Shown: positions 1,208 to 60,374 of the stretch, one piece after another
Layout: each line of letters opens with the position of its first letter
How positions within the stretch are numbered: the stretch's first letter is position 1
DNA from: a phage
Assembly (NCBI GenBank): GCA_028030915.1
Contig: GCA_028030915.1_4867.1
Reading direction: 5' to 3' (one strand)
Length of the DNA stretch: 64,000 nucleotides
Position numbers and translations under genes: made by a program
The notes under the pieces: generated by a model
The model's database searches: none
Seen by the model: only the letters and a program-made list of their open reading frames with translations
What the model was told of the DNA's origin: nothing

Positions 1208-1220
1208 TAATAGTCGATTA
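1208..1220 (-). promoter_or_regulatory. conserved start-proximal motif B (AATCGACTATTA on minus strand), copy 1
   Basis: Plus-strand taatagtcgatta about 20 nt upstream of ATG 1188. Confidence 0.3.
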
Positions 1221-1238
1221 AAGCGTTAACGTGTAACG

Positions 1239-1263
1239 CTCACCTAAGTAATATATATCTCAG
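1239..1263 (-). promoter_or_regulatory. conserved intergenic motif A (candidate phage promoter), copy 1
   Basis: Plus-strand ctcacctaagtaatatatatctcag; minus-strand reading ctgagatatatattacttaggtgag contains TATATTAC; the 22-mer ctcacctaagtaatatatatct is identical to 60430-60451; lies between a terminator and the next start codon. Confidence 0.4.
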
Positions 1264-1282
1264 TTCTTTTTGAATGCAATTA

Positions 1283-1324
1283 ATAAAATAAAAAGACTCA
1301 CCCGTATCCGAAGATAGGATGAGC
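1283..1324 (-). terminator. intrinsic terminator (UUCG-tetraloop hairpin plus U-tract on minus-strand RNA)
   Basis: Plus-strand aataaaataaaaaga then ctcacccgtatccgaagataggatgag; on minus RNA this is a hairpin with UUCG loop followed by a U-rich tract, just after the stop of gene 1335-1928. Confidence 0.6.
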
Positions 1325-1334
1325 CTAGTGGAGC

Positions 1335-1928
1335 TTAGACTTGCAGTAGTGTCCCCGAGTAAGTAATCGGGTCATTGTAGAACGCTTCACACTGGAGGCA
1401 AATACCATCAATGTTCGGTTCTTCAGTTCGCGACCATATCGCCGCACCACCTTGCAAAATCCATTCTCGACAGTTACGACCATAATCGTCGACAAGCAAA
1501 TTACCTCGCGAGGCGTAAGCTTTCTTCTGCCCTGAACTTTCGGTGACGATGACTTTGTCAGCTGGTACCCCAAAGTGCTTCATGAACCACCGTTGTTTTG
1601 AATCCACAACCAATTGGTGGTCGTAGTGATCTTCTGACCCAGAGGTGAGTATTGCCCAACTGTCGCAAAGTCTATCTACCGTTTCCAGGATTCGCTCTAC
1701 ACCCTCAATTGGTTCGAGTTTGTAAAACAAGTCAGGATCGTTCTGATACATCGAACGAACCAAACTACGACGACGGAGTTCAGGTAATGCGTTAAACTCT
1801 TTAATCGTCATTCCGGGAAAATGTGTGGATAAAACGTATTTACGCCAGCGTGCAAAAACGCCATCGCTATCCAGATAAAACATTTTCTTGTCCTTATTTT
1901 GTTCCCCAACACATGAAACCAACGTCAT
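1335..1928 (-). CDS. HAD-superfamily 5'(3')-deoxyribonucleotidase-like protein
   Basis: ORF track 197 aa; motif YLDSDGV (HAD motif I DxDG) near N-terminus and LVDDY near C-terminus; probable true start at internal Met (about 1883). Confidence 0.55.
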   Translation of the reverse strand: MTLVSCVGEQNKDKKMFYLDSDGVFARWRKYVLSTHFPGMTIKEFNALPELRRRSLVRSMYQNDPDLFYKLEPIEGVERILETVDRLCDSWAILTSGSEDHYDHQLVVDSKQRWFMKHFGVPADKVIVTESSGQKKAYASRGNLLVDDYGRNCREWILQGGAAIWSRTEEPNIDGICLQCEAFYNDPITYSGTLLQV

Positions 1929-1936
1929 GTAAAAAA

Positions 1937-2281
1937 TTACATCTGCTTTATTGCCATATTCGAACGATACGGCTCAGTGAGTAGAAAGTAAGTACGGCGA
2001 TAGTCGATTGTCACTCCAGCCTCTTTAATGTCGCAATAGAGTGCCATGATATCTAGCGACGCGATTCCGGAGATAATGTTATTAACCTTGCGTTTTGTAT
2101 CAAAACGTTCCGATAAGATTTCGGCAAGCACTTCCTTACCAGCCTTTCCTTGGATGGCGTAGATCGCTAACGCTTTCAGTTCTTCCGGCGTCAAACAACG
2201 AAGGGTCGGAGGTATTGCGATGTTAACGACCTTCATGCGTCCCCCTACTGTAGTGGTTTTTAGTTGTGATTTGCAGACCAC
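1937..2281 (-). CDS. hypothetical protein (114 aa)
   Basis: ORF track; gene array context. Confidence 0.5.
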   Translation of the reverse strand: MVCKSQLKTTTVGGRMKVVNIAIPPTLRCLTPEELKALAIYAIQGKAGKEVLAEILSERFDTKRKVNNIISGIASLDIMALYCDIKEAGVTIDYRRTYFLLTEPYRSNMAIKQM

Positions 2282-2291
2282 GAACTAGGCA

Positions 2292-2921
2292 CTACGGTGA
2301 AACGACGTATTCGTTCAGTGCGTTATCAAAAGCAGTACGCGCAGTGGCGACCGCCTCCGAGACCTTAACTTCACCGCGCTCCCAGTTGACGCTGATAATC
2401 AGCCGATAAAACTCGCCGGCTTTCAGCAGTTGACTGGTAGACAGGCGCACATCTTGTCCGAAACTTAAGTGATAGACAAAAACATGACCACCGTTGCGAA
2501 GTTCTGACAATCGCATCTCGCCCAGGTAAATCGGTTTGATATCCCAGTTCGACATGCGGTGTGGTACAATCCATACTTCACCCGCCCGATTCGGTTCCTG
2601 TGTCAGGTTGACCGAAGGCTGCGCTACATCACGTTCATCAAAACCGTAAAGATATAATCGTGTGGGTATTTCGATTGCAGAGAAGTTGTGACGTGCACCC
2701 TTAATCGCTCGCTCTAAATCTACCGAGCAGCAAATCCTGGGCACGGTCTTGTCTTCATCTGGCGCGCACGAAAGTGGGATACGCGGCGAAAACGTCGGTA
2801 TCTTACACTTGCTTAAATGCAGCGGCTGTTCAGTCAGTTTACGTAACGTCAACTTTTTGGCGACGTGCGGCATCTGGCGTTCACACCACCGCTCTAATGA
2901 CGGGTCGACATGTTCTGCCAT
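2292..2921 (-). CDS. hypothetical protein (209 aa)
   Basis: ORF track; gene array context. Confidence 0.55.
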   Translation of the reverse strand: MAEHVDPSLERWCERQMPHVAKKLTLRKLTEQPLHLSKCKIPTFSPRIPLSCAPDEDKTVPRICCSVDLERAIKGARHNFSAIEIPTRLYLYGFDERDVAQPSVNLTQEPNRAGEVWIVPHRMSNWDIKPIYLGEMRLSELRNGGHVFVYHLSFGQDVRLSTSQLLKAGEFYRLIISVNWERGEVKVSEAVATARTAFDNALNEYVVSP

Positions 2922-2924
2922 TTT

Positions 2925-3728
2925 TTACCAGCTCCTTACACCCATGCCCATTACCCGCAGATTGGACACTTTCGGAGCCAGCTGCAGGTATTCCTGCGCG
3001 AGTTGCTGGAGAGCACCACGACGGGACTCAGTGGCAACAGCGCTGGTCGTTGTCGGATTGTACAGAATGTCTTCCAACACTTGACGACTGATAGGGCGGT
3101 CGACGTAAGTGCGAGTAGATTCCTGTGCCACTTTACTACCGCGTTGAATCGCAGAGTATTTGTTACAGATTTGCAGGCCATCTTCAATAACCCAGTCAAA
3201 GGTGACCAGTTTATCGATGCGGCGTACGATAGTCGTACCCAGACGACCTTCACGAACGATAGCACGCAGCGAGAAACACACGTTCTGATGTGGGTTCTCT
3301 AGTGCTTCCGCCAGAAGCGGACCACGTTCACGGTTAGGTTTAATCCAACCCCAAATTTCCATCACCGGCAGACCGTTACACATCTGGTCGGTCGGCTTCA
3401 CTTCTACTTCGCGAATGTGCATACACACGTTACGCGTTTCGATCCATTCGTTACGTTCGATCCACTGGGCTTCGCTCATGCCTTGTTCGTATTGCGGATG
3501 GTCTTCTTCACCGAAGAGATTCCCCGCCAAAACTTTACGCATGAAAACGTTAGAGCGCTCGAAGACATGTTTTGACTCGTTATAGGCGTAGTAAATATTC
3601 TCAGAGTTGAAAATATTCAGTGCACCTAACAGGACGTAGTAATATCCGTCCGCATCTTTCTTTAGCGTTGCCCCTTTATTGACCCCAGCGAGTGCCACGC
3701 AGTTATAACGTAGTGACAAGTTTTCCAT
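2925..3728 (-). CDS. hypothetical protein (267 aa)
   Basis: ORF track; long ORF, tight spacing. Confidence 0.6.
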   Translation of the reverse strand: MENLSLRYNCVALAGVNKGATLKKDADGYYYVLLGALNIFNSENIYYAYNESKHVFERSNVFMRKVLAGNLFGEEDHPQYEQGMSEAQWIERNEWIETRNVCMHIREVEVKPTDQMCNGLPVMEIWGWIKPNRERGPLLAEALENPHQNVCFSLRAIVREGRLGTTIVRRIDKLVTFDWVIEDGLQICNKYSAIQRGSKVAQESTRTYVDRPISRQVLEDILYNPTTTSAVATESRRGALQQLAQEYLQLAPKVSNLRVMGMGVRSW

Positions 3729-3790
3729 TGGTTTCCCCAGTTGTTATTACCGAAGCGGGTTATTGGGGACGTACAATAACCCTACCTCAG

Positions 3791-4519
3791 TTACCTCATA
3801 TACAAATCCTCGAGTGGCTCTGCACGTACCGGATCGACCTGGAGTGCAGAACGGATACCCTGTTTCAGTTCCACATCTGCAATCTTGGCCAACCGGGAAG
3901 TTTTGTTCAATGAACCTGAACGCAGCGGAATAAACTGCACCCGATTCATCAAATCGCTGTCTTTTTTCAGGGTGTAGCGGAAATACGTCCGCGGGTCGCC
4001 AACCTTACGCTGTGTGTGGGCAGCATAACAGTCAGCGGTGATCTGGTCGTTAAAGACCGTAAAGCCGTTCCACGTCTTAGTGTCAGACAATAGCTCAGCG
4101 TCATCTACTGCGGTGTACCAGAAAGGCCGGTTTCCGAAGTCGTAGATGTACGAAGCGATGTTGTAGACTGGCGAGGATAGCACTTGCAGCATTCGGTTGG
4201 GGAACACCACCGTGCCGGGGTCAAAACGGAACTCGTAATACGGCACACCCTGAACGTCAATTTCCTCAAACGCCGACGGGGTAATTTCAATGAACGTCGT
4301 GACGTTCGATACCCCGTAGGTTTTGCGGTCAGTGGAGATAGCGAAAATACCGACGATTTCTACTTGCGAAGAAATTACCGCCAGCTCTTTAGCCACGAAG
4401 CCAACAGGGATGTAAATGTAACATCCCCCTTTGGTGATGGTGGCCGTGCCTTGGTCCACTAAATCTGCATGAATTTTCGTCGCGTCACGACGTGCTGTTT
4501 CAATGGCGCTCACGACCAC
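3791..4519 (-). CDS. hypothetical protein (242 aa)
   Basis: ORF track; long ORF. Confidence 0.6.
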   Translation of the reverse strand: MVVSAIETARRDATKIHADLVDQGTATITKGGCYIYIPVGFVAKELAVISSQVEIVGIFAISTDRKTYGVSNVTTFIEITPSAFEEIDVQGVPYYEFRFDPGTVVFPNRMLQVLSSPVYNIASYIYDFGNRPFWYTAVDDAELLSDTKTWNGFTVFNDQITADCYAAHTQRKVGDPRTYFRYTLKKDSDLMNRVQFIPLRSGSLNKTSRLAKIADVELKQGIRSALQVDPVRAEPLEDLYMR

Positions 4520-4528
4520 CTCTCTTTA

Positions 4529-6004: not shown

Positions 6005-6294
6005 GCCTGACCCCCGTTTTTGGTGCTGATGGAATCCTGGATGCGACCAGTAATGCGCGCACCCACCATATCAGCGATGTCTCGTTTCAGCAAACGCTGA
6101 TCGCCCATGCGGTCAGACAGGCCATTGCTGCCCTTCAGCAGTCCGTGAATAATTTCGGTGGCCAATTCAACCGCATTGCCCAGAACAACAAAGTTCATGC
6201 GTTGCTGTGGGGAATAACCTTCCGTTTCCGGATTCGTGCTATTACGGCCCACCGGAATCCCATGCTGCTGCTTGAGCGTATCTAAAATTCCCAT
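6001..6294 (-). CDS. hypothetical protein (97 aa)
   Basis: ORF track; 4-nt overlap with downstream gene suggests translational coupling. Confidence 0.45.
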   Translation of the reverse strand: MGILDTLKQQHGIPVGRNSTNPETEGYSPQQRMNFVVLGNAVELATEIIHGLLKGSNGLSDRMGDQRLLKRDIADMVGARITGRIQDSISTKNGGQA

Positions 6295-6341
6295 TATTAA
6301 CTCCGGAGTTTATTTACCGGGCGGGAGCGACCCGCCCTACA

Positions 6342-23846: not shown

Positions 23847-24326
23847 TTAATTAATCAGGTGTATCACAACGTCTGGCGTTACTACGTCGACCAGACTGCG
23901 ATAGATTTTATCGTAACTGAACTTGTTGAAGAAGAAACCCGCTTCGTCGACAATAACCAAACCGAATTTCTCGTAGCCTGATACACCAGCACCCGTCGCG
24001 CGTTTCCAACCCTCAGGCAAGTAGTTACAGTGTACGGTCAACCAACCGTTCCCGGCGGCCTTTTCATGGAACTTCTCCACTACTTCGTTTCGTAACGATT
24101 CATTGTGGACCAGATACAGAACGCTGCCGTGGAACTTTGCTGACATATCAACGGCGTGTGTTGTAACGCCCTTCTGACGACCGGCACCATAACGGATGGT
24201 ACGGAACTCACTCAGTGCAATGTGTGGCAGGAAGCCACAGCTGCGGGCTTCACCGGAGTCCAGTTCGATAAGACCTTTGGACAGTTCTTTTACTACGGCA
24301 CGATAATCGATCCGAGTTATAGACAT
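23847..24326 (-). CDS. hypothetical protein (159 aa)
   Basis: ORF track. Confidence 0.55.
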   Translation of the reverse strand: MSITRIDYRAVVKELSKGLIELDSGEARSCGFLPHIALSEFRTIRYGAGRQKGVTTHAVDMSAKFHGSVLYLVHNESLRNEVVEKFHEKAAGNGWLTVHCNYLPEGWKRATGAGVSGYEKFGLVIVDEAGFFFNKFSYDKIYRSLVDVVTPDVVIHLIN

Positions 24327-24337
24327 CTGTTTTCACC

Positions 24338-25105
24338 TTATTTGTAGTTAACCATATACGGCGCGCCCTGCTTAGTAAAGCCAACCGTCAGCTTGCTCGC
24401 CTCTTCTTTTACCCATGCGGGTAATTCTTCACGGAAAGCCGGGTTCAGGAACCAAATCTGCTCATAGCGCCCGTCAATCTTTTCAACAACACGTTCCCAA
24501 CCTTCGACGTACGTCAACGAGAACCATTTAGAACGCGCCTGGCGTGCCCAGTAGTGGTATTCGATGGTTCGACCGACGTGAGTCAAGACATCAATCAGAA
24601 CTTGGTAGAAGCTCGGCTTTCCGATGACATGGGTATACTCGAAGATAACAGACTCTTCGCCAGGGACGAAGTTATCTTCAAAATTCTTCTCCCCTGTTAA
24701 CGGTACCATTATCGTGTCGTTGTTGATACACAGCAACCAGTGCTTATTCGAAAATATCGGCGTATCGCCTGAGAAACGAGCCCAGCGATAATTTTCAATC
24801 GCGACGCCAATCTGTGGCCGTAGTGTATCGACCACTTTCGCTATCGCTGCAGGGTCTATCGGCTCATAAACCAGACAAATCGCTTGCGCTTGCTCTCTTT
24901 CCTGCTCAGGTTCCGCAGGTCGTGGTCGCCGCCCCAGCATCAGAATCCCACTAAGATTAGTTTCCCCAATCTCAATGATTTCTATTTCGCTAGTGGGAAG
25001 CTGCCGTTTAGCGTCTTCCATGTCGACGGCCCCTAATAACCCGTATTCGTAGTCGTCGAATTCCACTGTGTAGAATTCATCGGAGAACGCAAAGAGTTTC
25101 ATCAT
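24338..25105 (-). CDS. hypothetical protein (255 aa)
   Basis: ORF track. Confidence 0.6.
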   Translation of the reverse strand: MMKLFAFSDEFYTVEFDDYEYGLLGAVDMEDAKRQLPTSEIEIIEIGETNLSGILMLGRRPRPAEPEQEREQAQAICLVYEPIDPAAIAKVVDTLRPQIGVAIENYRWARFSGDTPIFSNKHWLLCINNDTIMVPLTGEKNFEDNFVPGEESVIFEYTHVIGKPSFYQVLIDVLTHVGRTIEYHYWARQARSKWFSLTYVEGWERVVEKIDGRYEQIWFLNPAFREELPAWVKEEASKLTVGFTKQGAPYMVNYK

Positions 25106-25106
25106 C

Positions 25107-25370
25107 TTATTTCTCCATTGTTTTAAAGAGAACGTCTACGCTGTTACGGAGCATATTCAGTTCTTCTTCTTTCTTACGCAGCAGCATTTCAGGAGCGTTC
25201 TTTGCAAACTCCTTCAATGCCATTTGGACGACATGCGAATCGGTTTCGTCCGGGAACAGGGCCTTTAATGCAACCCATTCTTCCGCCGTGAAAACATCGC
25301 CTTTGCGAACATTACGCTGTTGTGGTAGTCGAATTGTTTTACTGAGTCGGTCAGTCATAGCTCCACCCAA
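25107..25370 (-). CDS. hypothetical protein (87 aa)
   Basis: ORF track; tight spacing. Confidence 0.45.
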   Translation of the reverse strand: MGGAMTDRLSKTIRLPQQRNVRKGDVFTAEEWVALKALFPDETDSHVVQMALKEFAKNAPEMLLRKKEEELNMLRNSVDVLFKTMEK

Positions 25371-25891
25371 ATCAGTTTAAAGGTATTACCTTCTAAGCCG
25401 GTCGGATGGATAATCATCGCTTCGGTATAGATAGGCTCTTCTTCTGCAATGCGGTGCTCAGTTGCCAAACCCGAAAGATGCATGTAGAGGTCTTCATCCA
25501 TATCCCCGTTAAAAGATGAGGTCAGGATGAAAGGTGTGGATTCTGCGATTTGCAAAAGCGTTTCTTTGCTAATCTGCATCTCCATTGTCCGACGTCGTTC
25601 CATCCAACTGCCTTGTTCGTGGATATACGGGTCGGTATTAATGCGAACGACAGGTTCCGTAGACACACCCAGACCACGCGACATCATCTGGATGGCCAGA
25701 AGCGTCCACCATTCTTGTTCAGCTATCGGGAAACCGATAGCTTTCATCGTCCCGTCCGGTTGTGGAACGTGCAATTGTCCACGATGTTCGTCTGGAAACT
25801 CGATGATCTTCTGTCCATTGACAGGAATAAACGGCGGTTCGTCCGTAGCAACCACCACTTTAGGTTTGAATGGAACGACGTTGTCAACCAT
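25355..25891 (-). CDS. hypothetical protein (178 aa)
   Basis: ORF track. Confidence 0.55.
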   Translation of the reverse strand: MVDNVVPFKPKVVVATDEPPFIPVNGQKIIEFPDEHRGQLHVPQPDGTMKAIGFPIAEQEWWTLLAIQMMSRGLGVSTEPVVRINTDPYIHEQGSWMERRRTMEMQISKETLLQIAESTPFILTSSFNGDMDEDLYMHLSGLATEHRIAEEEPIYTEAMIIHPTGLEGNTFKLIWVEL

Positions 25892-26200: not shown

Positions 26201-27294
26201 CAAAACGTTCAGATGTGGTCGTTAATCACATCCCGCGCCATTACGCGCAGCTGCATGTCGCCATGCAGATCAGACTATATCACCATCTGCGAAACTGCTG
26301 CGCAGATGCTCTCCCATTTCGAGGACACTTGTCCCCTACGAACAATCACGTTCTAGTCGTTGGGCATTTATCTAACCACTGCCATGCGGTGTACTTTGGA
26401 TTTTCACTATTAATTCGCCAAAGCACGACAGAAGGGCTTTTACCAAGTTTCCTTCCTGCGTCAGTGATACTCTCGTACACTACGTCGTCGATTAATACTG
26501 GCCGGATATTAGGCGGTTTGTTACCGAGCTTTTTCTCCGCTATGCGCTTGCGAGTTTCCTCGCTGTGGGTTTTGCCAAAGAACGAATTCTTCTCTCCCAC
26601 ACGCCCTGCGGCATGGAGAGAGATTTTCCTACGATGCTCGTCACTAAACTTCCGCCCCAAATGAGGGCTGTCATTAGTGAGATACCACTCGGTGACTTTA
26701 CGCCTGATTTTCTCACGCGCTTCGTCCGAATGTGTTTTACCAAACATCCCATTCATTTTACCAATCCTGCCGTAAACCTTTTTACGTTCAGATGGCGACA
26801 TCGAGTCATATCGTTCGCGAAGCGTTGCTGTTATTTTCGCGATTATTTCATCTCGTCTTGGATGGTTGGTAATACAGTCGTAATAATTCTCAATGTTGAC
26901 GAAAGATTGATCTAAAGCAATCTGTTCTTGTTCTCTCGCACGTGCTTCTGCTTTAGAGGCACAACGAATTAACGTAGGATTGCCATCGAATACAAATCCT
27001 TCATCCCATGCTTTTTGCAGGAACCAGTTATGGTGCTTACCTTGACGCAACTCTTTCAGGTGGCGTTTTAGCCGCTTTTTGAATTGCGTGGTTTCACCAA
27101 TGTATCGACGCTTCTCATCACCTTTTACAAAGGTGAGAATGTACAATATTGCCATGATGTTGTCCTCTTAAATCAGATTAAAAGGTACACCTAGCAATGG
27201 TTAGAATTTAGCAACGGGTTCTCTCCGTAGAGTGCTTCCCGTTTTAGGGAGTGTTTTTCGACTAGGGTCGCCCCTAGAAGGCGCAGCTTAGTTT
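26201..27294 (-). mobile_element. group I intron (T4 td-like) interrupting thymidylate synthase, carrying a homing endonuclease gene
   Basis: 1094 nt between ThyA exons; exon 1 ends with U (cag cgt), intron ends with G (gttttg), and joining restores ...[17 protein letters not shown]. The 5' part contains aaacgggaagcactctacggagagaacccgttgctaaatt, very close to the T4 td intron core; the 3' part contains gatatagtc (P7-like). Confidence 0.8.
26346..27155 (-). CDS. GIY-YIG homing endonuclease (I-TevI-like), intron-encoded
   Basis: 269 aa; N-terminus ILYILTF...RYIGETTQFKKRLKRHLKELRQGKHH aligns with I-TevI GIYQI...VYVGSAKDFEKRWKRHFKDLEKGCH; C-terminal repeated NUMOD-like motifs (MNGMFGKTHSDEAREKI, NSFFGKTHSEETRKRI); SD aagagga before ATG 27155. 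Confidence 0.85.
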   Translation of the reverse strand: MAILYILTFVKGDEKRRYIGETTQFKKRLKRHLKELRQGKHHNWFLQKAWDEGFVFDGNPTLIRCASKAEARAREQEQIALDQSFVNIENYYDCITNHPRRDEIIAKITATLRERYDSMSPSERKKVYGRIGKMNGMFGKTHSDEAREKIRRKVTEWYLTNDSPHLGRKFSDEHRRKISLHAAGRVGEKNSFFGKTHSEETRKRIAEKKLGNKPPNIRPVLIDDVVYESITDAGRKLGKSPSVVLWRINSENPKYTAWQWLDKCPTTRT

Positions 27295-28037: not shown

Positions 28038-28976
28038 TTATTTTCCTTTCAATAAATTCAAAATGTCTCTTAAATCGTCGTTCGCACATATGTTTACAGC
28101 GTTACCATCGAACTTAACATCAACGCGAGGGTTACGATTGAACAACATTTGTTTTCTTACTATCCACGGTTCAAAGTGCGCCTTGAGAAGCTCTTGCAGC
28201 TTTTCGTTCATAATGTCCTCCATCCGCAGCAATAGCTGCGGCATGGCGACTTCACCGTTATGCTCGGTTTGTAAATCATTCGATGTGGCCAAAAGACAAT
28301 TTACAATAATGTCGTGAACTGACTCGTTGGTTTTGTACACCGTCTGATAGGTTTGTTTCGCCAAATCGTCGTCGGATAACGGCAACGATGCTTTGAGCAG
28401 TTCGCCGAGCGTGCTTTTCGTTTCAGGCGTTTTAACGAGCTTACGATGGCCATTAAAAACAACACGGTCAAACTCCAGCCCGCAACGACACGCCAACAAT
28501 TGATACTGTCTCATCAACTTACGAAGCAGCGCGCTATAACTCTTAGGGTCAGGTTCTGGTTCACGCAAAACAACACTAACGGTCTCGACTGCAATTAACA
28601 TGAGCTGCTGCAGTTGTCCTTCTTTCGTGCCAGTTGTAGTACGAAGAGACACCGCATCACTCAACGGAACGACAATATCACCGAGGTTAGAATGTGGACC
28701 GAGGTGTAGCAGCGCGGCAAATGTCCAAATCGATTCACCGATACCGGCAGCCACCTTTAAGTTATCCAGTTCATCGACACCTGCTGAGATCCTGCCGAGT
28801 GTGACGTAATACTTTACCAACTGACGCTCAGTCGCTTTCTGTTGGTAGATATCCGTCTTGCGAAACCACTCTTCGACCGCTTGAACTTGCTGAATGATAC
28901 TAAACACAGGCTTCCTCCTCCTGATACGCGTAGCAGATTGCAAAGTTAAGCTGGCCGGTTGCGCGAGAAACGACAA
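28038..28976 (-). CDS. hypothetical protein (up to 312 aa)
   Basis: ORF track; overlaps upstream ORF by 77 nt, so the true start is probably internal. Confidence 0.5.
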
Positions 28977-35018: not shown

Positions 35019-35040
35019 GGATAGATAATATCTGTCTGAG
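35019..35040 (-). promoter_or_regulatory. conserved intergenic motif A, copy 2
   Basis: ggatagataatatctgtctgag; about 30 nt upstream of start 34988. Confidence 0.35.
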
Positions 35041-46694: not shown

Positions 46695-48074
46695 ATGTAT
46701 GATTTACAAGGCTTTATTCAAATAGCGGCTCTGATTGATAATGGCCCTGGCAACACCGCTCCGGTAGGTGAGTTGTCTGAGCTGTCATATTCGTTCGCTA
46801 AAAGCAAGCAGTATTTTACTAAAGAAAATCTGCAGGTGGAACTGGTTGCTTTTACTTCTAAACGTGACGAGTTACCTATTAAGACCCCGGCCGTCTTTAG
46901 CGACCACGTTCTTACTGTTTCCCAATGGATCTACCAACAGTCTATCCTGGGCAACTTAAGAAACGACGAAGTTGAATTCCAGCGTTTGCTGTTGGGGCAA
47001 TTTAATAGTGTCATCAGCGGTGTTCAGTCTGGCGCGATGATTCAGACTAACAGTAACTGGTTCCCACGTTGGGTCAGTTGGAAACTTGAAACCACAGCAG
47101 ATAAAGTCGAAGACCCATCTGATGTGAATAACCAGATTATTCTCTGGTTTGCTGATGAAGATTTCAATCAGGACTATACCGGATTTGAAATTGAAGTCCA
47201 AATGCCGATATTACCGGTTGATACTTTCTTGGCTGTGAAATCTGTAGTCGAAAAGGCAATGGAAGGGTTCAACCTTCCGGATCACCATAATAAGATTAAC
47301 GAATTAGCTGACGGTTATCCGTACACTAGCCTGATTACTAACATCTATACTTGGCACGACCAGGAAGACTTTGATTCCACCTTACCGATACCGATGTCGG
47401 CTATCATCTACGGACGCGCGGGTCGTAACCCGAGCAGGATTAAACAAGCGTTGCGTGATTACATTTTGGCAAACTCCAGTTTTACTGTGGCGTTGGGTGT
47501 CAAGGTGTTCCCAGAAATCTTTACGACCACCAAGTTCACAATTGTTCCCGGTTGGTCAATTCGTGGGATTCCAAATGAGGAAGACGTTGCGGCATTATAC
47601 TCGCCGATTCTCCCATATGATTTCTGGGTCAAAGCAATCTCCCGATTTGGGGAGTGGACTGTTCAAACCATTACGGAAAAAAATAGTGGAGCAATCTCAA
47701 CTCCAACTACCGATGTAACGGATTTACCGTCCATCTATAAATCACTAAACGCTGTAGTTATCGCAGGCCCTGAAAACGATTCACGCAAAACGACCCTGCA
47801 CGATACGATTCCCGACTACGCATTAATCGGCACTAACAATGCAGATATTGCGAGAATGTCGAAGAAAACCACCGAGTGGCTGGACTTGTTCTTCCAGGCG
47901 TTAATCGCAGCGGAAGAGTATCACCCACATTCCACCCCGCTGGATATCGTGAAGCTCGTAGACGACGTCGATCCTAACGTTTACTTCTACGTCTTCGAAT
48001 TCGATAACGTGGAGTATCGTGTCTTGGCCCGCAAAGCTGTTTGGGATGTCCCTGCGGCAGAGCCAGAAGCCTAA
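46695..48074 (+). CDS. hypothetical protein (459 aa), possibly structural
   Basis: ORF track; SD ggagag upstream. Confidence 0.65.
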   Translation: MYDLQGFIQIAALIDNGPGNTAPVGELSELSYSFAKSKQYFTKENLQVELVAFTSKRDELPIKTPAVFSDHVLTVSQWIYQQSILGNLRNDEVEFQRLLLGQFNSVISGVQSGAMIQTNSNWFPRWVSWKLETTADKVEDPSDVNNQIILWFADEDFNQDYTGFEIEVQMPILPVDTFLAVKSVVEKAMEGFNLPDHHNKINELADGYPYTSLITNIYTWHDQEDFDSTLPIPMSAIIYGRAGRNPSRIKQALRDYILANSSFTVALGVKVFPEIFTTTKFTIVPGWSIRGIPNEEDVAALYSPILPYDFWVKAISRFGEWTVQTITEKNSGAISTPTTDVTDLPSIYKSLNAVVIAGPENDSRKTTLHDTIPDYALIGTNNADIARMSKKTTEWLDLFFQALIAAEEYHPHSTPLDIVKLVDDVDPNVYFYVFEFDNVEYRVLARKAVWDVPAAEPEA

Positions 48075-50273: not shown

Positions 50274-50277
50274 TTAA

Positions 50278-51677: not shown

Positions 51678-51697
51678 TGATGATAATATCTATTTGA
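51678..51697 (-). promoter_or_regulatory. conserved intergenic motif A, copy 4
   Basis: tgatgataatatctatttga; overlaps stop of macrodomain gene, about 95 nt upstream of start 51590. Confidence 0.3.
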
Positions 51698-53087: not shown

Positions 53088-53112
53088 AATCGTAAGGAGT
53101 GCTAAAACAGGA

Positions 53113-54026: not shown

Positions 54027-54138
54027 TTCGTAATTACCCTCCTGTTAAAACCAACCTTGCGTCAATGCAAGGATTGCGCCTAGGGCGTATGCGCCTGCTC
54101 CTAGTACCAGACTACAGATGATACACCCAACCCACTTC

Positions 54139-54737: not shown

Positions 54738-57237
54738 ATTTGATTATTACCCCTTCGTTATACACCGGTGGAAGCGTTACACCTTCTGGTTCTACGACAC
54801 AGTAGGTGGCTTCGTTAAGTTTAGAATGAACTTCCGCTTCATGCGAAACGACCAGCAATTGAGAAAACTCTCCCGACAACGCCAACGATTTAATGAAGTT
54901 AACTAATCGGTTTTTGTGTTCTTCATCCATGCCTTCAGATGGTTCATCCAATAACAAAGGATAATTTTGTAAACCAAGTGCTTTATACGCCGTTAAACGA
55001 AACATCATGTTGAAAATGATACGCTGTGCTTTTGAACCTTTCTTCACGTCAGGTACCAGTTCTTCATGGTCTTTTAATCGTACCGGGAATGTGTAATCCA
55101 AATCCCCGTCGGTTAAATCGCACGGAATAACCTGCATCGGATATGCCCACACCATTTCGATATACCGATTCATTAAATCCATGATGCGTGTAATCGCAGC
55201 ATAAAAGTAACGACGCAATAATCCTTTTTCGGGGGAGACGGCATTGATAATCAATCTGGCATGGTGATGCTCTTTGAGCAGTTCAGCTTGTTCCTTTTCC
55301 AGTTCCGCTAAACGTGCAATAGCCCCTTCCATTTGACGAAACCGTTCACGAGCTGAAGTATACGCATCGAGCTTCGCTTCGCGTCGGTTTAACAACTCGC
55401 GAACCACGACGTTGTTAACGGAGATGTTCATTTCCGATACCAGATGTTCGTAGCCCTTTTGGAAACGTTCGATTGCTTCTTTGGTTTGTTGCAGTTGGAT
55501 GGTTTCGCGTTCCAGCTCATTGGCTTGTCTGCGGTATTCTATCAGTCGACGGTTAGCCCCGTCTAGTTGTGAACGGATATGTTCAATTTTCTGACTCAGC
55601 GCACCATCAACATTACCTACTGCGGCAACAGCCTCTTGCCATTCCCGTTCCGCTGTTGCAAGCTTCGCTGATTGACGCAGATACATCATGGCCGAATCTA
55701 ACTCTTCGGTAAAGGCACGTGCAATGGCACCATAACGATCCCGCGACGTGGTGAAGATATCCAACTCTTGCAGTTTACGGAAAAACAAACCGACAACGGG
55801 ATGGTTGGAATACGACATGACAATTTCGCGAATCGTACGTAAGCTACGGACGTCCTCTTCAATCTCTTTGCGGTCACGCAAAAGACTATCCATTTCGTCT
55901 TTCAGCTGTTTTTTCCAACCTTCATTATCGTTGATGGCCTTTTCAGTTTCAGGTAACGACTTACGAATCCCAGGACGGAAACGGTGGTTACACTGTGGAC
56001 AATCAACTTCTGCAGTTTCTAAGAAGTGTTGACGGTCGTGGTATAAACCGTGTAGCACATTCTCACAACGTTGCAACTTTTCAGATAGACCCGCAGAGGT
56101 TAAATCCATACCCTGTAAACGCTTCTCTAACGCTCCCAGGCGCTCTGTTGTCTTTAACTGGTCCAGATGCATGGACAACGGTAAATTCCAGTTACAGGCG
56201 TCGTTTAACGCGTTCTGAATGCTATCCACGTCGATGCGGGTACCTTCAAACAGAGCCGGGAACATCCAGTTCTGTTGGAACGTTGCCAGTTCCTGTTTTA
56301 AGCTGTCGATTGTTTGTTTTAGACCGGTATGGTTGCGCATCAGATATGTTTGACGCGACTCCTCATCCAGTAGCTGTGACAACTCTTTATTGTACATGTT
56401 GCATTCAGTTTCAGCAGAGGCAGCTTGCTCACGCCAGGCAACCACACGACTTTGAAACTCGTTAATCAGTTCGTCAGAAGGCAGAACGCCATAACGTTCC
56501 ATAATGAGTTTTACAGCCGGTTGCAACGAAGCAATGCGTTTCCGGATACTGTCAACCGAAACAGCGTTATCTAAACCGGGCCTTGCTTCAATTGTGCGGT
56601 TTAATTCTTGAAGCTCAGCATCGAGTTCTTTCAAACGAACTTCTAAACGTGCACGATCTTCTTCATCGTCAACGACGCGCATTTTTGCTTCGCCGATTTT
56701 TCGTCCGGTGTGTTCGATGGCCCCGCTTAAACTGGAAGCGAGTTTACGCAAACGTCGATAGCAGCCAACAACGTATGTCAGATCAGATTCTGACATTAAC
56801 GTAAACCATTTGCGACGAACTTCGGTAGTGGCGTCAGTTAATAAGGTCTCGCCATTAATTAACTCTTTGATTTCTTTGGTGATTCCGGTTAACTGTTCCA
56901 CCATGGAGTTGTAAACTTTGGCGTTTACCGAGTCCACAATGGGGACGCCTTTGGTGATATTGAAAATACTACAAGACAAAGAAGACCCACGTCGCAGGAC
57001 TTCAAATTTAAGACGGTCGTCCCCGACTAACGCGTAGTTAGTGTAAGAACCGCCTTCGCGGAATTCAGATTTTGCTGGAGCTAAGGGGAGAAAAACAGAC
57101 AGGAGGCTTGTTTTACCGCAACCATTGCCACCGAGGATGATGGTAACGGTTGACTTAAGGGTGAAATCAAACGTTTCGATTTCGTGTAACCCCATGCCGG
57201 TAAATCCTTTCAAAATGATACGTTCGACCTTGAGCAT
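54727..57237 (-). CDS. Rad50/SbcC-like ATPase (836 aa)
   Basis: Walker A ILGGNGCGKTSLL near N-terminus; long central coiled-coil-like region with CPQC zinc-hook-like motif; Walker B/D-loop LLLDEPSEGMDEE and H-loop VVSHE near C-terminus. Confidence 0.8.
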   Translation of the reverse strand: MLKVERIILKGFTGMGLHEIETFDFTLKSTVTIILGGNGCGKTSLLSVFLPLAPAKSEFREGGSYTNYALVGDDRLKFEVLRRGSSLSCSIFNITKGVPIVDSVNAKVYNSMVEQLTGITKEIKELINGETLLTDATTEVRRKWFTLMSESDLTYVVGCYRRLRKLASSLSGAIEHTGRKIGEAKMRVVDDEEDRARLEVRLKELDAELQELNRTIEARPGLDNAVSVDSIRKRIASLQPAVKLIMERYGVLPSDELINEFQSRVVAWREQAASAETECNMYNKELSQLLDEESRQTYLMRNHTGLKQTIDSLKQELATFQQNWMFPALFEGTRIDVDSIQNALNDACNWNLPLSMHLDQLKTTERLGALEKRLQGMDLTSAGLSEKLQRCENVLHGLYHDRQHFLETAEVDCPQCNHRFRPGIRKSLPETEKAINDNEGWKKQLKDEMDSLLRDRKEIEEDVRSLRTIREIVMSYSNHPVVGLFFRKLQELDIFTTSRDRYGAIARAFTEELDSAMMYLRQSAKLATAEREWQEAVAAVGNVDGALSQKIEHIRSQLDGANRRLIEYRRQANELERETIQLQQTKEAIERFQKGYEHLVSEMNISVNNVVVRELLNRREAKLDAYTSARERFRQMEGAIARLAELEKEQAELLKEHHHARLIINAVSPEKGLLRRYFYAAITRIMDLMNRYIEMVWAYPMQVIPCDLTDGDLDYTFPVRLKDHEELVPDVKKGSKAQRIIFNMMFRLTAYKALGLQNYPLLLDEPSEGMDEEHKNRLVNFIKSLALSGEFSQLLVVSHEAEVHSKLNEATYCVVEPEGVTLPPVYNEGVIIKYAS

Positions 57238-57259
57238 GTTTGCCTTCTAATGAGAAAGT

Positions 57260-57269
57260 ATTAGTCGTT
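57260..57269 (-). promoter_or_regulatory. motif B variant (AACGACTAAT on minus strand)
   Basis: Plus-strand attagtcgtt about 23 nt upstream of Rad50-like gene start, downstream of terminator 57291-57322. Confidence 0.25.
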
Positions 57270-57290
57270 CATATCCAAAAGGCCATGCGT

Positions 57291-57322
57291 AAAAAAGAAG
57301 AAATGGAACCCCGAAGGGTTCC
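57291..57322 (-). terminator. intrinsic terminator (UUCG loop)
   Basis: aaaaaagaagaaat ggaaccc cgaa gggttcc. Confidence 0.55.
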
Positions 57323-57333
57323 AGAGAGGAGAG

Positions 57334-57960
57334 TTACTGCGGAATAAACTTACGGTGTCCGAGCGATTCCCAAAAACTGTCGGTGCGCTCTTTGGTTAAT
57401 TCATACCACGCACGCCCGGCATCAGAATCGACAACCTTTAACGTTTCAGTAAGCAGGAATTTGAACAGTTCAGCGCTACGACCGGGTGCTACACCGTCGA
57501 GATATATCGGAATTAAATAACCGGTTTTGATTTCTTCGTACGGTTGCGATTGGTGTTGACCAACAACCCAGGCATCAGCAGCGCTACCGACCAAAGTGGT
57601 GTTTACAGTTAACTCATCAGAAATCCAGTTAACTGTATCAGCCATTATTGAATCGCCATTGACGTAGAAGAAAACTAAACGTTTAGGTTGCTCCACCGAA
57701 CCAGCCAAATCTAATGCAGTAGTTCCGGTGAAGATCGTATTATTGGGATTACGTTCTGCAATAGGTAGAGCAAACCACGCTTCGAGCTGCCCCCAGCTAC
57801 GCGGCAGTGCTTCTTTAAACCACTTCACCAATCGCGGGTATTCCAGAAACCCTTCTACCTCTTCTTCCATCAGATTGATACGCAGTTTGGTATCCTGACG
57901 ATTCGCTTTCTGACACGTCACCATGTCGTCGATGAAACGAATCAGGGTAATCTCGTTCAT
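57334..57960 (-). CDS. hypothetical protein (208 aa)
   Basis: ORF track; flanked by terminator hairpins. Confidence 0.55.
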   Translation of the reverse strand: MNEITLIRFIDDMVTCQKANRQDTKLRINLMEEEVEGFLEYPRLVKWFKEALPRSWGQLEAWFALPIAERNPNNTIFTGTTALDLAGSVEQPKRLVFFYVNGDSIMADTVNWISDELTVNTTLVGSAADAWVVGQHQSQPYEEIKTGYLIPIYLDGVAPGRSAELFKFLLTETLKVVDSDAGRAWYELTKERTDSFWESLGHRKFIPQ

Positions 57961-57978
57961 GTTTAATCCTTCTTCAAC

Positions 57979-58007
57979 AAAAAAAGAAGGTAGCCCGTAG
58001 GCTACCT
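57979..58007 (-). terminator. intrinsic terminator
   Basis: aaaaaaagaa ggtagcc cgta ggctacc. Confidence 0.55.
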
Positions 58008-58014
58008 CTCGTAT

Positions 58015-58521
58015 TTACAGCCCCATATGCATAAGGGAAATGATTGGGACCTTACGGCCACGAATCATTGCATACGGTTCGTACATTTGTGCGTTAGTTT
58101 CGAATAACTCACAGGCCGGAATGCGGTCACCGGTAGAGAGTTGCAAGACTTCAATTTGGTCGCCCCAGAAGTTATTCACCAATACATGGTCGACAGTGTT
58201 GTCTTCACGACCTTCAGGGGTGTTGCAATAAGTGGCTGCAGCGTACCAGCCCTTACGGTATACTTCATAACCCGCATGAAGCATCCGGTAGTACGGACGT
58301 AGTTGTGGGGCATTCAACGCAGCATCTAGCCACTCGCTGTGAATGCTGTTAATCAATACGGTCGCTTCTTCTGGCCAGTCGGTGCGGTTTAGGGTTAACT
58401 CGCCTAACAGCTTTAACTTCCAGCCAGTGGAAAGAATAGCGCGGGTACGTTCGGGATTGACGTTCATCTGAGTAAAGAAAGTAGAACGGGTATCGTCGAG
58501 AATGTTCATGTTCATTTGCAT
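58015..58521 (-). CDS. hypothetical protein (about 168 aa)
   Basis: ORF track 58015-58581; preferred start MQMNMNILDD at 58521 with aagga SD, because the 58581 start lies inside a hairpin. Confidence 0.55.
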   Translation of the reverse strand: MQMNMNILDDTRSTFFTQMNVNPERTRAILSTGWKLKLLGELTLNRTDWPEEATVLINSIHSEWLDAALNAPQLRPYYRMLHAGYEVYRKGWYAAATYCNTPEGREDNTVDHVLVNNFWGDQIEVLQLSTGDRIPACELFETNAQMYEPYAMIRGRKVPIISLMHMGL

Positions 58522-58534
58522 AATCCTTACGAGT

Positions 58535-58545
58535 AATAGTCGATT
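58535..58545 (-). promoter_or_regulatory. motif B, copy 2
   Basis: Plus-strand aatagtcgatt about 14 nt upstream of ATG 58521, downstream of hairpin 58553-58590. Confidence 0.3.
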
Positions 58546-58644
58546 AAAAAGGACCCTGCGGCTAAGTGTTGGGGATATCACCGCAGGGCCAAAGTGAGAT
58601 GGGTCGTCATCTCACGTTATAACATCTGTCTGAAAACTTTTCGG

Positions 58645-59028
58645 TTACTGGTCGAGCGCTACTGAACCACGCACCACCCCTTGCTGTTCAATAACCAGGA
58701 GGCGTTGTTTGGTTTTCGTATTGTAAGCGAGCGACGCGCGAAGCGTCGGGTCGCACGTTATTGTCTCTACTGGCACAATCTCTTGTGCCTTTGAGTTCAA
58801 CAGAAAGTAGTAACCTGCCGGACAAGTTTCCTCGCCCTTTGCGTGGACTAGGATGTACTCGTCGTGCCGGCTGACTTCTTCACATCTACCATCGTCGCCA
58901 GTACAGACTTCGAACGAAGGCGGGTTGTACTGATACGGTGTGCCTGGTAGTAAATCTTCTACGCTAGTTGTAGCTGAAGCAGAAGCGGTAAAGAACACCG
59001 CCACGATAATACCCATAAATCCACGCAT
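58645..59028 (-). CDS. small secreted Cys-containing protein (127 aa)
   Basis: N-terminal MRGFMGIIVAVFFTASASA looks like a cleavable signal peptide; 6 Cys in the mature part. Confidence 0.55.
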   Translation of the reverse strand: MRGFMGIIVAVFFTASASATTSVEDLLPGTPYQYNPPSFEVCTGDDGRCEEVSRHDEYILVHAKGEETCPAGYYFLLNSKAQEIVPVETITCDPTLRASLAYNTKTKQRLLVIEQQGVVRGSVALDQ

Positions 59029-59041
59029 GTTGTTTCCTTAC

Positions 59042-59452
59042 TTAAAAGTCGAGTTTATTGATGCCTACATTTTTCTTAATCGTAGGGTCATACATGATAA
59101 CCGTCAGGGCATTGTCGCCTGGGTCGCGTGTAAACTCAGCAACGGCTTCACCACTGCAGGCTTGGTTATCATTATAGTTCATGGATTCGGCTTGCCCGGT
59201 TGCCATGTTAATAACCCCGTATTCAGGGTCGCCACATGCGACACCGCCCATCGTTTTCACTAACAGGTAACGGTTGTTATCGGACATCGCAACGATCTGG
59301 CAGCTACCGCCTTGTACGTCAGAGTTCTGGCACCAGAACGGCCCGCCGTATTCGTGATCGTTAACAACTTTTGGTAACTCGATACTCCCAGCGCGAGCGA
59401 AGAAGCTAATGGCTAGAGTAGCAAGTAAAACTGGTAATAAAAAATGTTTCAT
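59042..59452 (-). CDS. small secreted Cys-containing protein (136 aa)
   Basis: Signal peptide MKHFLLPVLLATLAISFFARA; shares PFWC...C.(I/V)V motif with the next gene upstream. Confidence 0.6.
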   Translation of the reverse strand: MKHFLLPVLLATLAISFFARAGSIELPKVVNDHEYGGPFWCQNSDVQGGSCQIVAMSDNNRYLLVKTMGGVACGDPEYGVINMATGQAESMNYNDNQACSGEAVAEFTRDPGDNALTVIMYDPTIKKNVGINKLDF

Positions 59453-59474
59453 AATAGCACCTCAATTTTTTGAG

Positions 59475-59966
59475 TTATTCTGAATAGTCGATTGTTTTGA
59501 TGGTTTCCATACCGTAGTACATAGCGATGGAGGCCAGAGTTTTGGTATCCGGTCGCTGTACAAAACCGGCTCTGAAATCTTTGCTGCAAATTTTCTCCAC
59601 TGATAGTTCATCACGATTAGGGATAAGCCATAACGCGTCACCATTGTGACGGTCGACTGCACCCCACCAACCACCTGGGCAATCTTTATCGCCCGGACGG
59701 TGTACGATAGCGACACGACCGTTGAAGGATATGTCAACTACACGACACTGTTTCTTAAGCAGCTTACGCGCATTGCACCAGAACGGCTTATCATTAAGAT
59801 TGATGGTGCGGGTATATGCTGGAATGCTGCCGTTAATACTGCCCTGGAACCCGCTGAATTCGTCAGCGCGTGCCTTAGAAATCCGTAGCCCAACAACAAC
59901 TGCCATCAACAGCACAGTAAAAAGCACCACTTTGGCCAAGTGGCGATTAACGTTATTGCATTTCAT
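59475..59966 (-). CDS. small secreted Cys-containing protein (about 163 aa)
   Basis: ORF track 59475-60011; preferred start MKCNNVNRHLAKVVLFTVLLMAVVVGL (signal peptide); DKPFWCNARKLLKKQCRVV motif paralogous to 59042-59452. Confidence 0.55.
   Translation of the reverse strand: MKCNNVNRHLAKVVLFTVLLMAVVVGLRISKARADEFSGFQGSINGSIPAYTRTINLNDKPFWCNARKLLKKQCRVVDISFNGRVAIVHRPGDKDCPGGWWGAVDRHNGDALWLIPNRDELSVEKICSKDFRAGFVQRPDTKTLASIAMYYGMETIKTIDYSE
59483..59493 (-). promoter_or_regulatory. motif B, copy 3
   Basis: Plus-strand aatagtcgatt about 30 nt upstream of ATG 59452. Confidence 0.3.
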
Positions 59967-60354
59967 TTTTGATATCTCCACGATTGAGGGTGATGCGACC
60001 GACGAGCACATCGTTGTGATAAAAGCTCACAGCAACCAAATTCGGTAATTCCAGTGGCGATACACTGACCGAGGTGACTTTTGGTTGATTGCACGATATG
60101 TCGATTAACCGCTGATACATTTTCAATTTCTTATCAGCGATAACCAGCCCTGTGCAGTTCTTACCGTCCGTCAGTCTGTAGATTTGTAACTGTTCGACCT
60201 CACGCATCAGTTCCGGTTTTTCATTCGGTGCAATGCCATAATCCGAATCAGCTGATGTGTATTCAGTCACGTCTGGCTTATCGAAAGCATAAGTTGCTGC
60301 AATACCACATGCGGCCAGAACTACTACTGCTTGTAAGAACTTCTTGATAGTCAT
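59953..60354 (-). CDS. putative lipoprotein (133 aa)
   Basis: N-terminus MTIKKFLQAVVVLAACG with lipobox-like LAAC. Confidence 0.55.
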   Translation of the reverse strand: MTIKKFLQAVVVLAACGIAATYAFDKPDVTEYTSADSDYGIAPNEKPELMREVEQLQIYRLTDGKNCTGLVIADKKLKMYQRLIDISCNQPKVTSVSVSPLELPNLVAVSFYHNDVLVGRITLNRGDIKNEMQ

Positions 60355-60363
60355 GTTTTACTC

Positions 60364-60374
60364 TATAGTCGATT
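60364..60374 (-). promoter_or_regulatory. motif B, copy 4
   Basis: Plus-strand tatagtcgatt about 10 nt upstream of ATG 60354, downstream of hairpin 60380-60408. Confidence 0.3.

Follow-up and report, generated by a model that had tools for sequence, protein, structure and literature searches.

What reads a short string that recurs just 5′ of start codons in the genome of a giant phage? We address this question for a 64,000-nucleotide stretch of phage DNA (NCBI GenBank assembly GCA_028030915.1, contig GCA_028030915.1_4867.1), referred to as a whole as the window, and for a conserved 12-base signal within it, AATCGACTATTA, which we call the box. In SPN3US-like giant phages the box lies directly 5′ of the ribosome-binding site of early genes, and its consensus there is A-(A/T)-Y-C-G-A-C-Y-A-T-Y-A; in Machinavirus-like phages it reads ATTGACYATCA. 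The window belongs to an SPN3US-like Salmonella jumbo phage (Seoulvirus), related to phiKZ and equipped with RNA polymerases of its own, with 96–99% identity to SPN3US and its close relatives. Its minus strand corresponds to the SPN3US plus strand, and window positions 56000–62000 correspond to SPN3US 164138–170137. The original prediction suggested either a compact promoter whose leader is very short or a translational operator. These are still the two leading explanations after testing, although the picture needed three corrections, concerning the kinds of hairpin beside the element, its restriction to early regions and the list of genes that it serves. We show that the box is a real, non-chance and conserved signal of fixed orientation and fixed position relative to start codons, restricted to early regions.

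All five strings of the original prediction are present on the minus strand at the positions given, and the gaps from the 3′ end of the string to the start codon (19 nt for the site at 1208, 18 for 58534, 29 for 59482, 8 for 60363 and 22 for 57260) make its distance of 10–30 nt essentially right. The window has five copies of the form AATCGACTA, where 0.65 are expected, and all are on the minus strand; one of 100 shuffles reached five copies. For the 11-mer AATCGACTATT with at most one mismatch, the six window matches compare with 1.38 expected, and 0 of 100 shuffles reached six. We tested the motif beyond the window in the complete annotated SPN3US genome (NC_027402) and in the complete phiEaH2 genome. 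AATCGAC[CT]AT occurs 11 times on the two strands of SPN3US, and nine of these copies lie 8–90 nt 5′ of an annotated start on the same strand, where 0.5 are expected (p = 4e-11). The exact 11-mer occurs seven times in SPN3US, all on the main coding strand, six of them just 5′ of an annotated start. In phiEaH2, a member of a different genus, 12 of the 15 copies of A[ATC][CT]CGAC[CT]AT are followed by a Shine-Dalgarno (SD) sequence and a start codon within 12–45 nt. A k-mer screen of all SPN3US upstream regions found the box independently, beside the SD sequence, terminator T-runs and early-promoter words. The distance from the start of the core to the ATG is 27–31 nt at ∼24 sites in SPN3US and phiEaH2. 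At every site in Machinavirus-like genomes, box and SD sequence directly adjoin (GACTATCAAGGA). Among leaders from outside SPN3US, 16 of 44 carry the strict core YGACYWTH, compared with 4.5% of control windows (p = 4e-11); leaders of the CR5-like clade carry looser variants. A literature search found no description of the motif strings.

Four boxes in the window are solid (1208–1219, 329–340, 58534–58545 and 60363–60374). A position weight matrix (PWM) trained only on sites from other phages gives the first three 19.5–19.9 bits (Table 1); the fourth has a lower score, but SPN3US and pEa_SNUABM_29 retain a box beside the same gene. The earlier list of sites was incomplete, since a top-scoring box at 329–340, at an HD-domain gene, had been overlooked. 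Membership of the 59483 site is doubtful: it coincides with in-frame Ile-Asp-Tyr codons at the 3′ end of the upstream open reading frame (ORF), and it is missing at the orthologous position in pEa_SNUABM_29. The proposed variant at 57260–57269 falls outside the box family; it is GGATATGAACGAC that is conserved at this place, a TATG-type element whose TATG at 57273–57270 resembles the phiKZ late-type T-3ATG+1 motif. The list of genes served was consequently right only in part: the Rad50/SbcC-like ATPase gene has a TATG-type element, one of the ‘secreted protein’ sites (59483) is not conserved, and the HD-domain gene was left out. A further match, at 1998–2009, was rejected as a coincidence of Ile-Asp-Tyr codons, and Parshik has the same codons there. 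For the gp082 orthologue (58015–58581, minus strand), the program-made ORF list begins at GTG 58581, while the annotated start in relatives is the SD-preceded ATG 58515. The latter fits the spacing of box, SD sequence and ATG, and the 66 nt upstream of it are occupied by the terminator hairpin.

Orthologous boxes persist across Seoulvirus, Erskinevirus and Machinavirus despite divergence of the neighbouring hairpins, spacers and flanks. The box is invariant at orthologous sites where the proteins are only 40–58% identical; that it holds while the flanking intergenic bases change is a mark of purifying selection. At the gp082 orthologue, the pSal-SNUABM-04 box is a clade-specific form that abuts the SD sequence, and the long hairpin before the box is kept in pEa_SNUABM_29, phiEaH2 and pSal-SNUABM-04.

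Table 1. Boxes, associated elements and other promoter-like motifs in the window and in SPN3US (window positions unless marked; hairpin and promoter assignments are predictions)
Feature	Sequence	Position	Strand	PWM (bits)	Context	Orthologous sites
Box	AATCGACTATTA	1208..1219	-	19.9	Box start 31 nt before ATG 1188-1186	Kept in SPAsTU, Asesino, phiEaH2, Parshik; proteins down to 40% identity
ORF behind 1208 box		790..1188	-		Orthologue of SPN3US ACQ60_gp017; SD AAGGAG at 1202-1197	
Early promoter, vRNAP-type	GATATATATTACTTAGGTGA	1240..1259	-		Predicted TSS the G at 1241, 7th nt after TATATTAC	
5′ leader hairpin	AGCGTTA-cacgt-TAACGCT, then TTT	1222..1240	-		Very start of predicted early transcript	
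Box	AATCGACCATTA	329..340	-	19.5	Intercistronic gap, no adjoining promoter or hairpin	TCGACCATTA kept in SPN3US, SPAsTU, Asesino, phiEaH2
HD-domain phosphohydrolase gene behind 329 box		ATG 311-309	-		Gene extends past window edge	
Box	AATCGACTATTA	58534..58545	-	19.9	30 nt before ATG 58515, orthologue of SPN3US gp082	Kept in Seoulvirus, Erskinevirus, Machinavirus: pEa_SNUABM_29 (ATCGACTATTA), phiEaH2 (AATCGACTATCA), pSal-SNUABM-04 (CTTGACTATCG)
Long terminator-like hairpin	GGCCCTGCGG...CCGCAGGGTCC + T5	58546..58590	-		3′ end directly at gp082 box	
Putative degenerate early-type promoter and leader hairpin	CAGATGTTATAACGTGAG; GTGAGATG-acgacc-CATCTCAC	58594..58628	-		5′ of long hairpin	
Box variant	AATCGACTATAG	60363..60374	-	11.4	20 nt before ATG 60354, orthologue of SPN3US gp086, weak SD	SPN3US AATCGACTGTAG; pEa_SNUABM_29 AATCGACAATAG beside same gene, despite extra ORF between promoter and box
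Intrinsic terminator	GGCTACCCTCGGGTAGCC + T-run to 60380	60391..60408	-		Between early promoter and box	
Leader hairpin	GAGTTAA-gaga-TTAACTC	60413..60430	-		Follows 60450-60431 promoter	
Early promoter, vRNAP-type	GATATATATTACTTAGGTGA	60431..60450	-		Predicted TSS 60432	
Doubtful box	AATCGACTATTC	59482..59493	-	14.4	41 nt before ATG 59452	
Doubtful weak box	ACTCGACTTTTA	59043..59054	-	13.4	26 nt before ATG 59028	Not conserved in pEa_SNUABM_29
Conserved non-box element	GGATATGAACGACTAAT	57260..57275	-		TATG 57273-57270, 33 nt before ATG of SbcC/Rad50-like gene	
Candidate middle-type motif	AAAATTTAC	SPN3US 1135, 23006, 64386, 92569, 109921, 238173			Copy at 64386 lies 15 nt before TATG	
Second early-type motif	(T)AGATATTATC(T)	35024-35032, 51682-51690; SPN3US 7435, 15768, 29014, 72738, 184093, 191651	- (window sites)			
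vRNAP, virion RNA polymerase; TSS, transcription start site.

In relatives of phiKZ, an injected virion RNA polymerase (vRNAP) transcribes the early genes and a non-virion polymerase (nvRNAP) the later genes (PMC7598289). By analogy with phiKZ and AR9, the same division of labour presumably applies to SPN3US-like phages. One of the genes behind a box, SPN3US 23859–25493 (the ‘hypothetical’ ACQ60_gp236), encodes a homologue of PHIKZ068, the sigma-like nvRNAP subunit (PDB 7ogp_B, E = 2e-6). Here the box lies between an early-type promoter and the SD sequence, and CAATCGACTATTCGCGGAG is identical in SPN3US, SPAsTU and phiEaH2; it is absent from the corresponding gene of Machina and CR5. Matches to gp236 in relatives (tblastn) align from residue 1 of a longer ORF, so that its true start is probably ATG 23859 rather than the annotated 23886. 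SPN3US ACQ60_gp165, directly behind an early promoter and box, matches HTH_3, HTH_37 and HTH_26, which are helix-turn-helix families of the Cro/C1 type. The other box genes encode small proteins of unknown function, for which Pfam and PHROGs were uninformative.

The surroundings of the box place it among early genes. CAGATATATATTACYTAGGTGA is a very strong vRNAP-type motif with six copies in SPN3US (56299, 65418, 94244, 113991, 165692 and 223282). Downstream of each copy come, in this order, a short hairpin, the box or a near match to it, an SD sequence and ATG. The TATATTAC core of these promoters is common to phiKZ early promoters. We scanned IMG/VR with the early-promoter word and obtained 53 distinct promoter–leader sequences from about a dozen related genomes, in all of which the CAGATATATATTACYTAGGTGA promoter is identical; a single-protein search for related loci returned two, and the Logan contigs inspected for transcript-like ends were genomic and uninformative. 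Ten of the 11 robust SPN3US boxes lie at most 100 nt downstream of an early-type promoter. Other boxes stand alone, still within clusters of early genes and in many cases immediately behind a terminator. Rather than forming an independent promoter class spread over the genome, the box is restricted to the regions of early genes. At the gp082 orthologue, likeness to GATATTATC-type promoters and to CAGATGTTATCTACGTGAGATG of pEa_SNUABM_29 suggests that the upstream element is an early-type promoter.

The hairpins beside the boxes are of two kinds, 5′-terminal leader hairpins of vRNAP transcripts and true terminators. The original prediction had three sites directly behind a hairpin and T-run, and all three structures are there (1240–1222; 58590–58551 with T5; 60408–60391 with T6), although not all are terminators and some are 5′ leader hairpins. 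In AR9, early transcription start sites (TSSs) fall 7 nt after TATATTAT (AR9 Table S2). By this rule the early TSS in the window would be the G of GAGAG (1241 and 60432), exactly at the hairpin base, and the hairpin would thus be the 5′-terminal stem-loop of the early mRNA rather than a terminator. The 45 distinct leaders of relatives have a mean folding z of −2.7, and their stem sequences differ between loci while pairing is kept. The AT-rich leader hairpin is probably a stabilising 5′-terminal stem-loop of early mRNAs. A composite element of hairpin plus box was considered and rejected, since the folding energy upstream of box genes does not differ from that of other intergenic regions (p = 0.28).

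Several independent boxes start 1–10 nt behind GC-rich terminator hairpins, which leaves no space for another promoter. Four consecutive small genes of phiEaH2 have a box each, two of the four directly after GC-rich terminators. The box stays with the ribosome-binding site when a terminator (60408–60391) or an extra ORF (pEa_SNUABM_29) parts the promoter from the gene. At window 60380–60450 (minus strand), a strong intrinsic terminator lies within ∼25 nt of a strong early promoter, behind it and before any gene, and the order is the same in pEa_SNUABM_29. From this layout one would expect an early RNA of only ∼50 nt, or else an attenuator; comparable small RNAs derived from 5′ untranslated regions (UTRs) occur in 201phi2-1 (PMC11512511). 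Many SPN3US genes begin only 10–20 nt behind a strong terminator, where an SD sequence alone fits (e.g. window 57987–58008 before start 57960). Judging from this spacing, read-through at terminators, or else transcription that starts within the T-run, must be frequent in this phage.

The box differs from every described phiKZ and AR9 promoter class, from every Rfam family and from the sigma-70 pattern. It lacks the ∼10-nt AT-rich block of the phiKZ-type vRNAP early promoter (TATATTAC, centred near −10); the early promoter is a separate element, and the box lies 20–70 nt downstream of TATATTAC-type blocks. The phiKZ nvRNAP late promoter is T-3ATG+1, with all four bases required (PMC7598289), and TATG occurs in no box variant. 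The phiKZ middle promoter has an A-rich run and TACT centred ∼22 nt upstream of the TSS; this motif is not in the box, and in Machinavirus-like genomes a TSS 22 nt 3′ of the box would be located at the ORF or within it. AAAATTTAC is the better SPN3US candidate for the middle class. Aligned with the AR9 nvRNAP late promoter, the box shares the AA and the terminal TA, lacks the CA of the tetrad and varies at position 12 (A, G, C or T). Scanning 56500–61500 for sigma-70 promoters (−35 and −10 hexamers, 16–18 nt spacer) gave no match at any box, and this region is depleted of sigma-70-like sites (three against 7.9 expected). The Rfam covariance models gave no match at gathering score anywhere in the window, the phiKZ early leaders that we inspected contain no equivalent box, and a full-text literature search for TATATTAC returned only unrelated papers. 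Pairing of the box UCGACUA with the leader start UAGGUGA, assessed by hand, gives six of seven pairs with a G-A mismatch; we rejected it, as it is lost without compensation in TCGACC variants and stand-alone boxes have no partner. Pairing with 16S rRNA, as in a translational enhancer, is spoken against by clade-specific spacing on near-identical host ribosomes.

SPN3US contains further promoter-like motifs. Thirteen of the 60 copies of [AT]TATGA[AC] lie upstream of starts, against 2.7 expected. Copies of (A/T)TATGA(A/C) ∼30–60 nt before starts are found at window 57270–57273, 46784–46791, 28207–28214 and 26805–26812 (minus strand) and at SPN3US 64408, 99582 and 229228, and the genes served include SbcC-like, tail-sheath and other late-type genes. 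This motif is likely the SPN3US counterpart of the phiKZ late promoter T-3ATG+1. All five copies of AAAATTTAC counted in SPN3US, outside the window, lie 50–84 nt upstream of starts (p = 2e-7); this motif may correspond to the middle-promoter element of phiKZ (A-rich run and TAC at about −22). Both motifs have longer and more variable distances to the start (31–84 nt) than the box. A second early-type motif, the near-palindromic (T)AGATATTATC(T), precedes several genes, including that of an RNA polymerase beta subunit. Its leaders usually have neither hairpin nor box, and a single copy at SPN3US 191104/191651 apparently serves genes in both directions.

What, then, does the box do? The reading that we favor, with a confidence just under an even chance, is that the box is a compact secondary promoter for a phage RNA polymerase, nested in early leaders. 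Such a promoter would overlap the TSS and be read by a multisubunit RNA polymerase of the phage, probably some form of nvRNAP; it would be located between the 5′ leader hairpin of the vRNAP transcript and the ribosome-binding site, and also alone inside early gene clusters. Initiation would occur at the invariant purine of GACY-A, which a pyrimidine precedes (window 1211, 332, 58537 and 60366), or alternatively 3 nt further, at the last base of the box. The resulting leaders would be ∼17–23 nt long and contain little beyond the SD sequence, and selected early-region genes could stay transcribable once the genome is closed to the virion polymerase. We infer each part of this proposal, namely promoter action on DNA, the polymerase used and the position of the TSS. 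In its favor, the box is strongly enriched and strictly co-oriented just 5′ of start codons in two whole genomes, and it travels with the gene rather than with the early promoter. It is also asymmetric, with an AT-rich 3′ half (TATTA) that would suit melting at a start site. There is precedent within the family. In AR9, early and late promoters stand in tandem before 86 ‘continuously expressed’ genes, some overlapping with TSSs 11 nt apart (g237), and the nvRNAP promoters of this phage are 12-nt TSS-proximal motifs with leaders mostly of 17–38 nt. Likewise, phiKZ gene 054 (PHIKZ054) combines a primary early TSS with a secondary middle TSS nested in the leader. Moreover, the gene of the sigma-like nvRNAP subunit is among those served, with the box invariant there in three genera, and its AR9 counterpart, g226, belongs to the continuously expressed class.

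Several observations weigh against the compact promoter. A plain logic of continuous expression does not predict confinement to early regions, and most nvRNAP and replication genes have no box. The distance from box to ATG is unusually tight and clade-specific, down to SD abutment in Machinavirus-like phages, unlike the 31–84 nt of the other promoter-like motifs in SPN3US. The box never occurs without a ribosome-binding site, and one early promoter without a nearby ORF has no box. Hairpins upstream of box genes are no stronger than in other intergenic regions (p = 0.28). Because SPN3US has its own phiKZ-like middle (AAAATTTAC) and late (TATG) candidates, the box would need a fourth specificity. 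Finally, the literature search returned no transcript map for any box-carrying phage and no TSS or promoter data for SPN3US.

A different explanation, in which the box acts as RNA, is a substantial minority prospect in our estimate and gains weight from the tight spacing and the confinement to early regions. A single-stranded operator 5′ of the SD sequence, in the leaders and intercistronic gaps of early mRNAs, would be read by a phage or host RNA-binding protein or endoribonuclease and would switch the translation or stability of a set of early cistrons, in the manner of T4 RegA/RegB. All robust boxes fall within regions transcribed from an early-type promoter further upstream, and each adjoins a ribosome-binding site, with which it remains when promoter and gene are separated; the clade-specific start-codon distance, the SD abutment and the presence of a box before each of several cistrons of one operon all fit. 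In most predicted leader folds the box is unpaired, downstream of a conserved stabiliser-like 5′ hairpin. Boxes also cluster at the strongest early promoters and at small genes without an assigned function, which are typically silenced at later times, and an unexplained motif has been reported in AR9 early 5′ UTRs. Set against this, ∼7–10 conserved nt without structure represent an unusually high specificity for single-strand RNA operators of bacteria or phages, and boxes right after strong terminators would be transcribed by read-through only. The clade-wide spacing could stem from recombination of leader cassettes rather than from selection, there is no Rfam match, and no candidate RNA-binding factor was identified, although no systematic search for one was made. 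What leads us to weight the promoter above the RNA operator is precedent in the family, a sequence that is highly specific yet unstructured, and the placement of boxes behind terminators. A sharper form of the RNA-level proposal has a slightly smaller chance: the box would be no promoter at all and instead an RNA signature of immediate-early mRNAs, a sequence-specific, per-cistron operator through which a phage factor times translation, cleavage or handling. Its corollary, equally tentative, is that the messages concerned would be those made before the phage nucleus exists, which would amount to a post-transcriptional early regulon in nucleus-forming jumbo phages. We know of no such regulon, and the literature that we searched makes no mention of one.

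The other explanations are far less probable. That the box is a DNA operator, at which a phage repressor such as the Cro/C1-type gp165 blocks elongation from early promoters later in infection, is very unlikely. The gp165 gene itself carries an early promoter and box, and the SPN3US box with one flanking T (TAAT-CGACT-ATTA) is self-complementary at 10 of 13 positions when compared by hand. Yet every site points the same way with respect to its gene, asymmetric centre included, the symmetry is lost in other clades (ATTGACTATCA), and the box tracks the ribosome-binding site rather than the promoter, occurring in intercistronic gaps far from promoters. The order of promoter, hairpin and conserved linear box in most strong early leaders recalls nut-like or rrn-like antitermination, in which a boxB-like hairpin and a boxA-like box would let the polymerase read through downstream terminators, and many downstream genes lie behind terminators without promoter space. 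This is the least probable of the explanations: several boxes occur per operon, some have no hairpin, a terminator separates hairpin from box at two loci, and the box keeps a fixed distance to the ribosome-binding site, which it tracks, in departure from lambda nut and rrn antiterminators, where each operon has a single hairpin and linear box close to the promoter. Hardly more credible is a box without function, carried as a passenger of a mobile or duplicated cassette of early promoter, hairpin and ribosome-binding site, or arising by chance. Some leaders do share long identical stretches (27 nt between SPN3US 65455 and 94280), and two exact matches are plain Ile-Asp-Tyr codons. Against this, the box is retained at orthologous sites whose hairpins, spacers and flanks have diverged; it is found apart from the other cassette elements at 329–340 and at phiEaH2 226431 and 234635; and the enrichment, at p = 4e-11 both in SPN3US and against control windows in other genomes, counters chance.

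According to a 2020 review, bioinformatics fails to predict the middle and late promoters of jumbo phages, and the source of nvRNAP specificity is unclear (PMC7598289). The box would be a clear exception to these unpredictable later promoters, or else a new RNA-level signal. It is sharp, easily found and conserved across genera, with about a dozen defined sites per genome, one of them before the gene of a sigma-like subunit, and these sites are concrete templates for experimenters. As a promoter it would offer a far better-defined substrate for studying promoter recognition than the 4-bp phiKZ late consensus, and possibly a compact part for engineering; as an RNA operator it would reveal an unknown layer of early-gene control. 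Either way, it should improve the annotation of transcription units in SPN3US-like candidates for phage therapy.

Known systems resemble the box in parts. T4 RegA and RegB mark early cistrons at their translation-initiation regions for repression or cleavage, through per-cistron sites next to or in the SD sequence; RegA sites are AU-rich and poorly conserved, and RegB cuts GGAG itself. Only the position beside the SD sequence of early cistrons is comparable, the box being longer and better conserved. In T4-type ‘promoter-early stem-loop’ (PeSL) cassettes, a stem-loop, regulatory motif, ribosome-binding site and small ORF are repeated in hyperplastic early regions, and recombination could homogenise them. 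The PeSL motif is a sigma-70 early promoter, whereas the box is an additional motif with the early promoter separate and upstream. The T7-group promoter TAATACGACTCACTATAG, with a 23-bp consensus of fixed spacing, has TAAT, CGACT and TAT(A) blocks in the same order as the box. The T7 core is 3–4 nt longer and its spacing does not fit, and we regard the likeness to T7 and SP6 promoters as coincidental. A tblastn search of SPN3US for a T7-like single-subunit polymerase, with T7 RNA polymerase as query, gave a best E of 9; as SPN3US shows no such polymerase, both resemblances were dropped.

The closest comparisons are with jumbo phages. phiKZ belongs to the same lineage as the box phages and has the same early-promoter core TATATTAC. 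Its late consensus is very short and overlaps the TSS, as proposed for the box, and a nested secondary TSS in an early leader is documented; the box has neither TATG nor the middle motif, and phiKZ early leaders have no box. The nvRNAP late promoters of AR9 (5′-A-11ACA-N6-T-A/G+1) are, like the box, 12-nt, oriented and TSS-proximal, with no −35 element. Their short leaders and tandem or overlapping arrangement with TATATTAT-type early promoters resemble what we propose for the box, whose sequence fits the AR9 geometry when written AATC-GACTAT-T-A, and a sigma-like subunit gene is served in both. The AACA tetrad is absent from the box, whose conserved core is YGACYAT. Recognition in AR9 needs template-strand uracils, whereas the pseudo-nucleus-forming phiKZ-type phages, to which the SPN3US group belongs, are treated as thymine-containing (PMC7598289). 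AR9 has ∼118 late promoters at late and structural genes, compared with ∼11–13 copies of the box, all in early regions.

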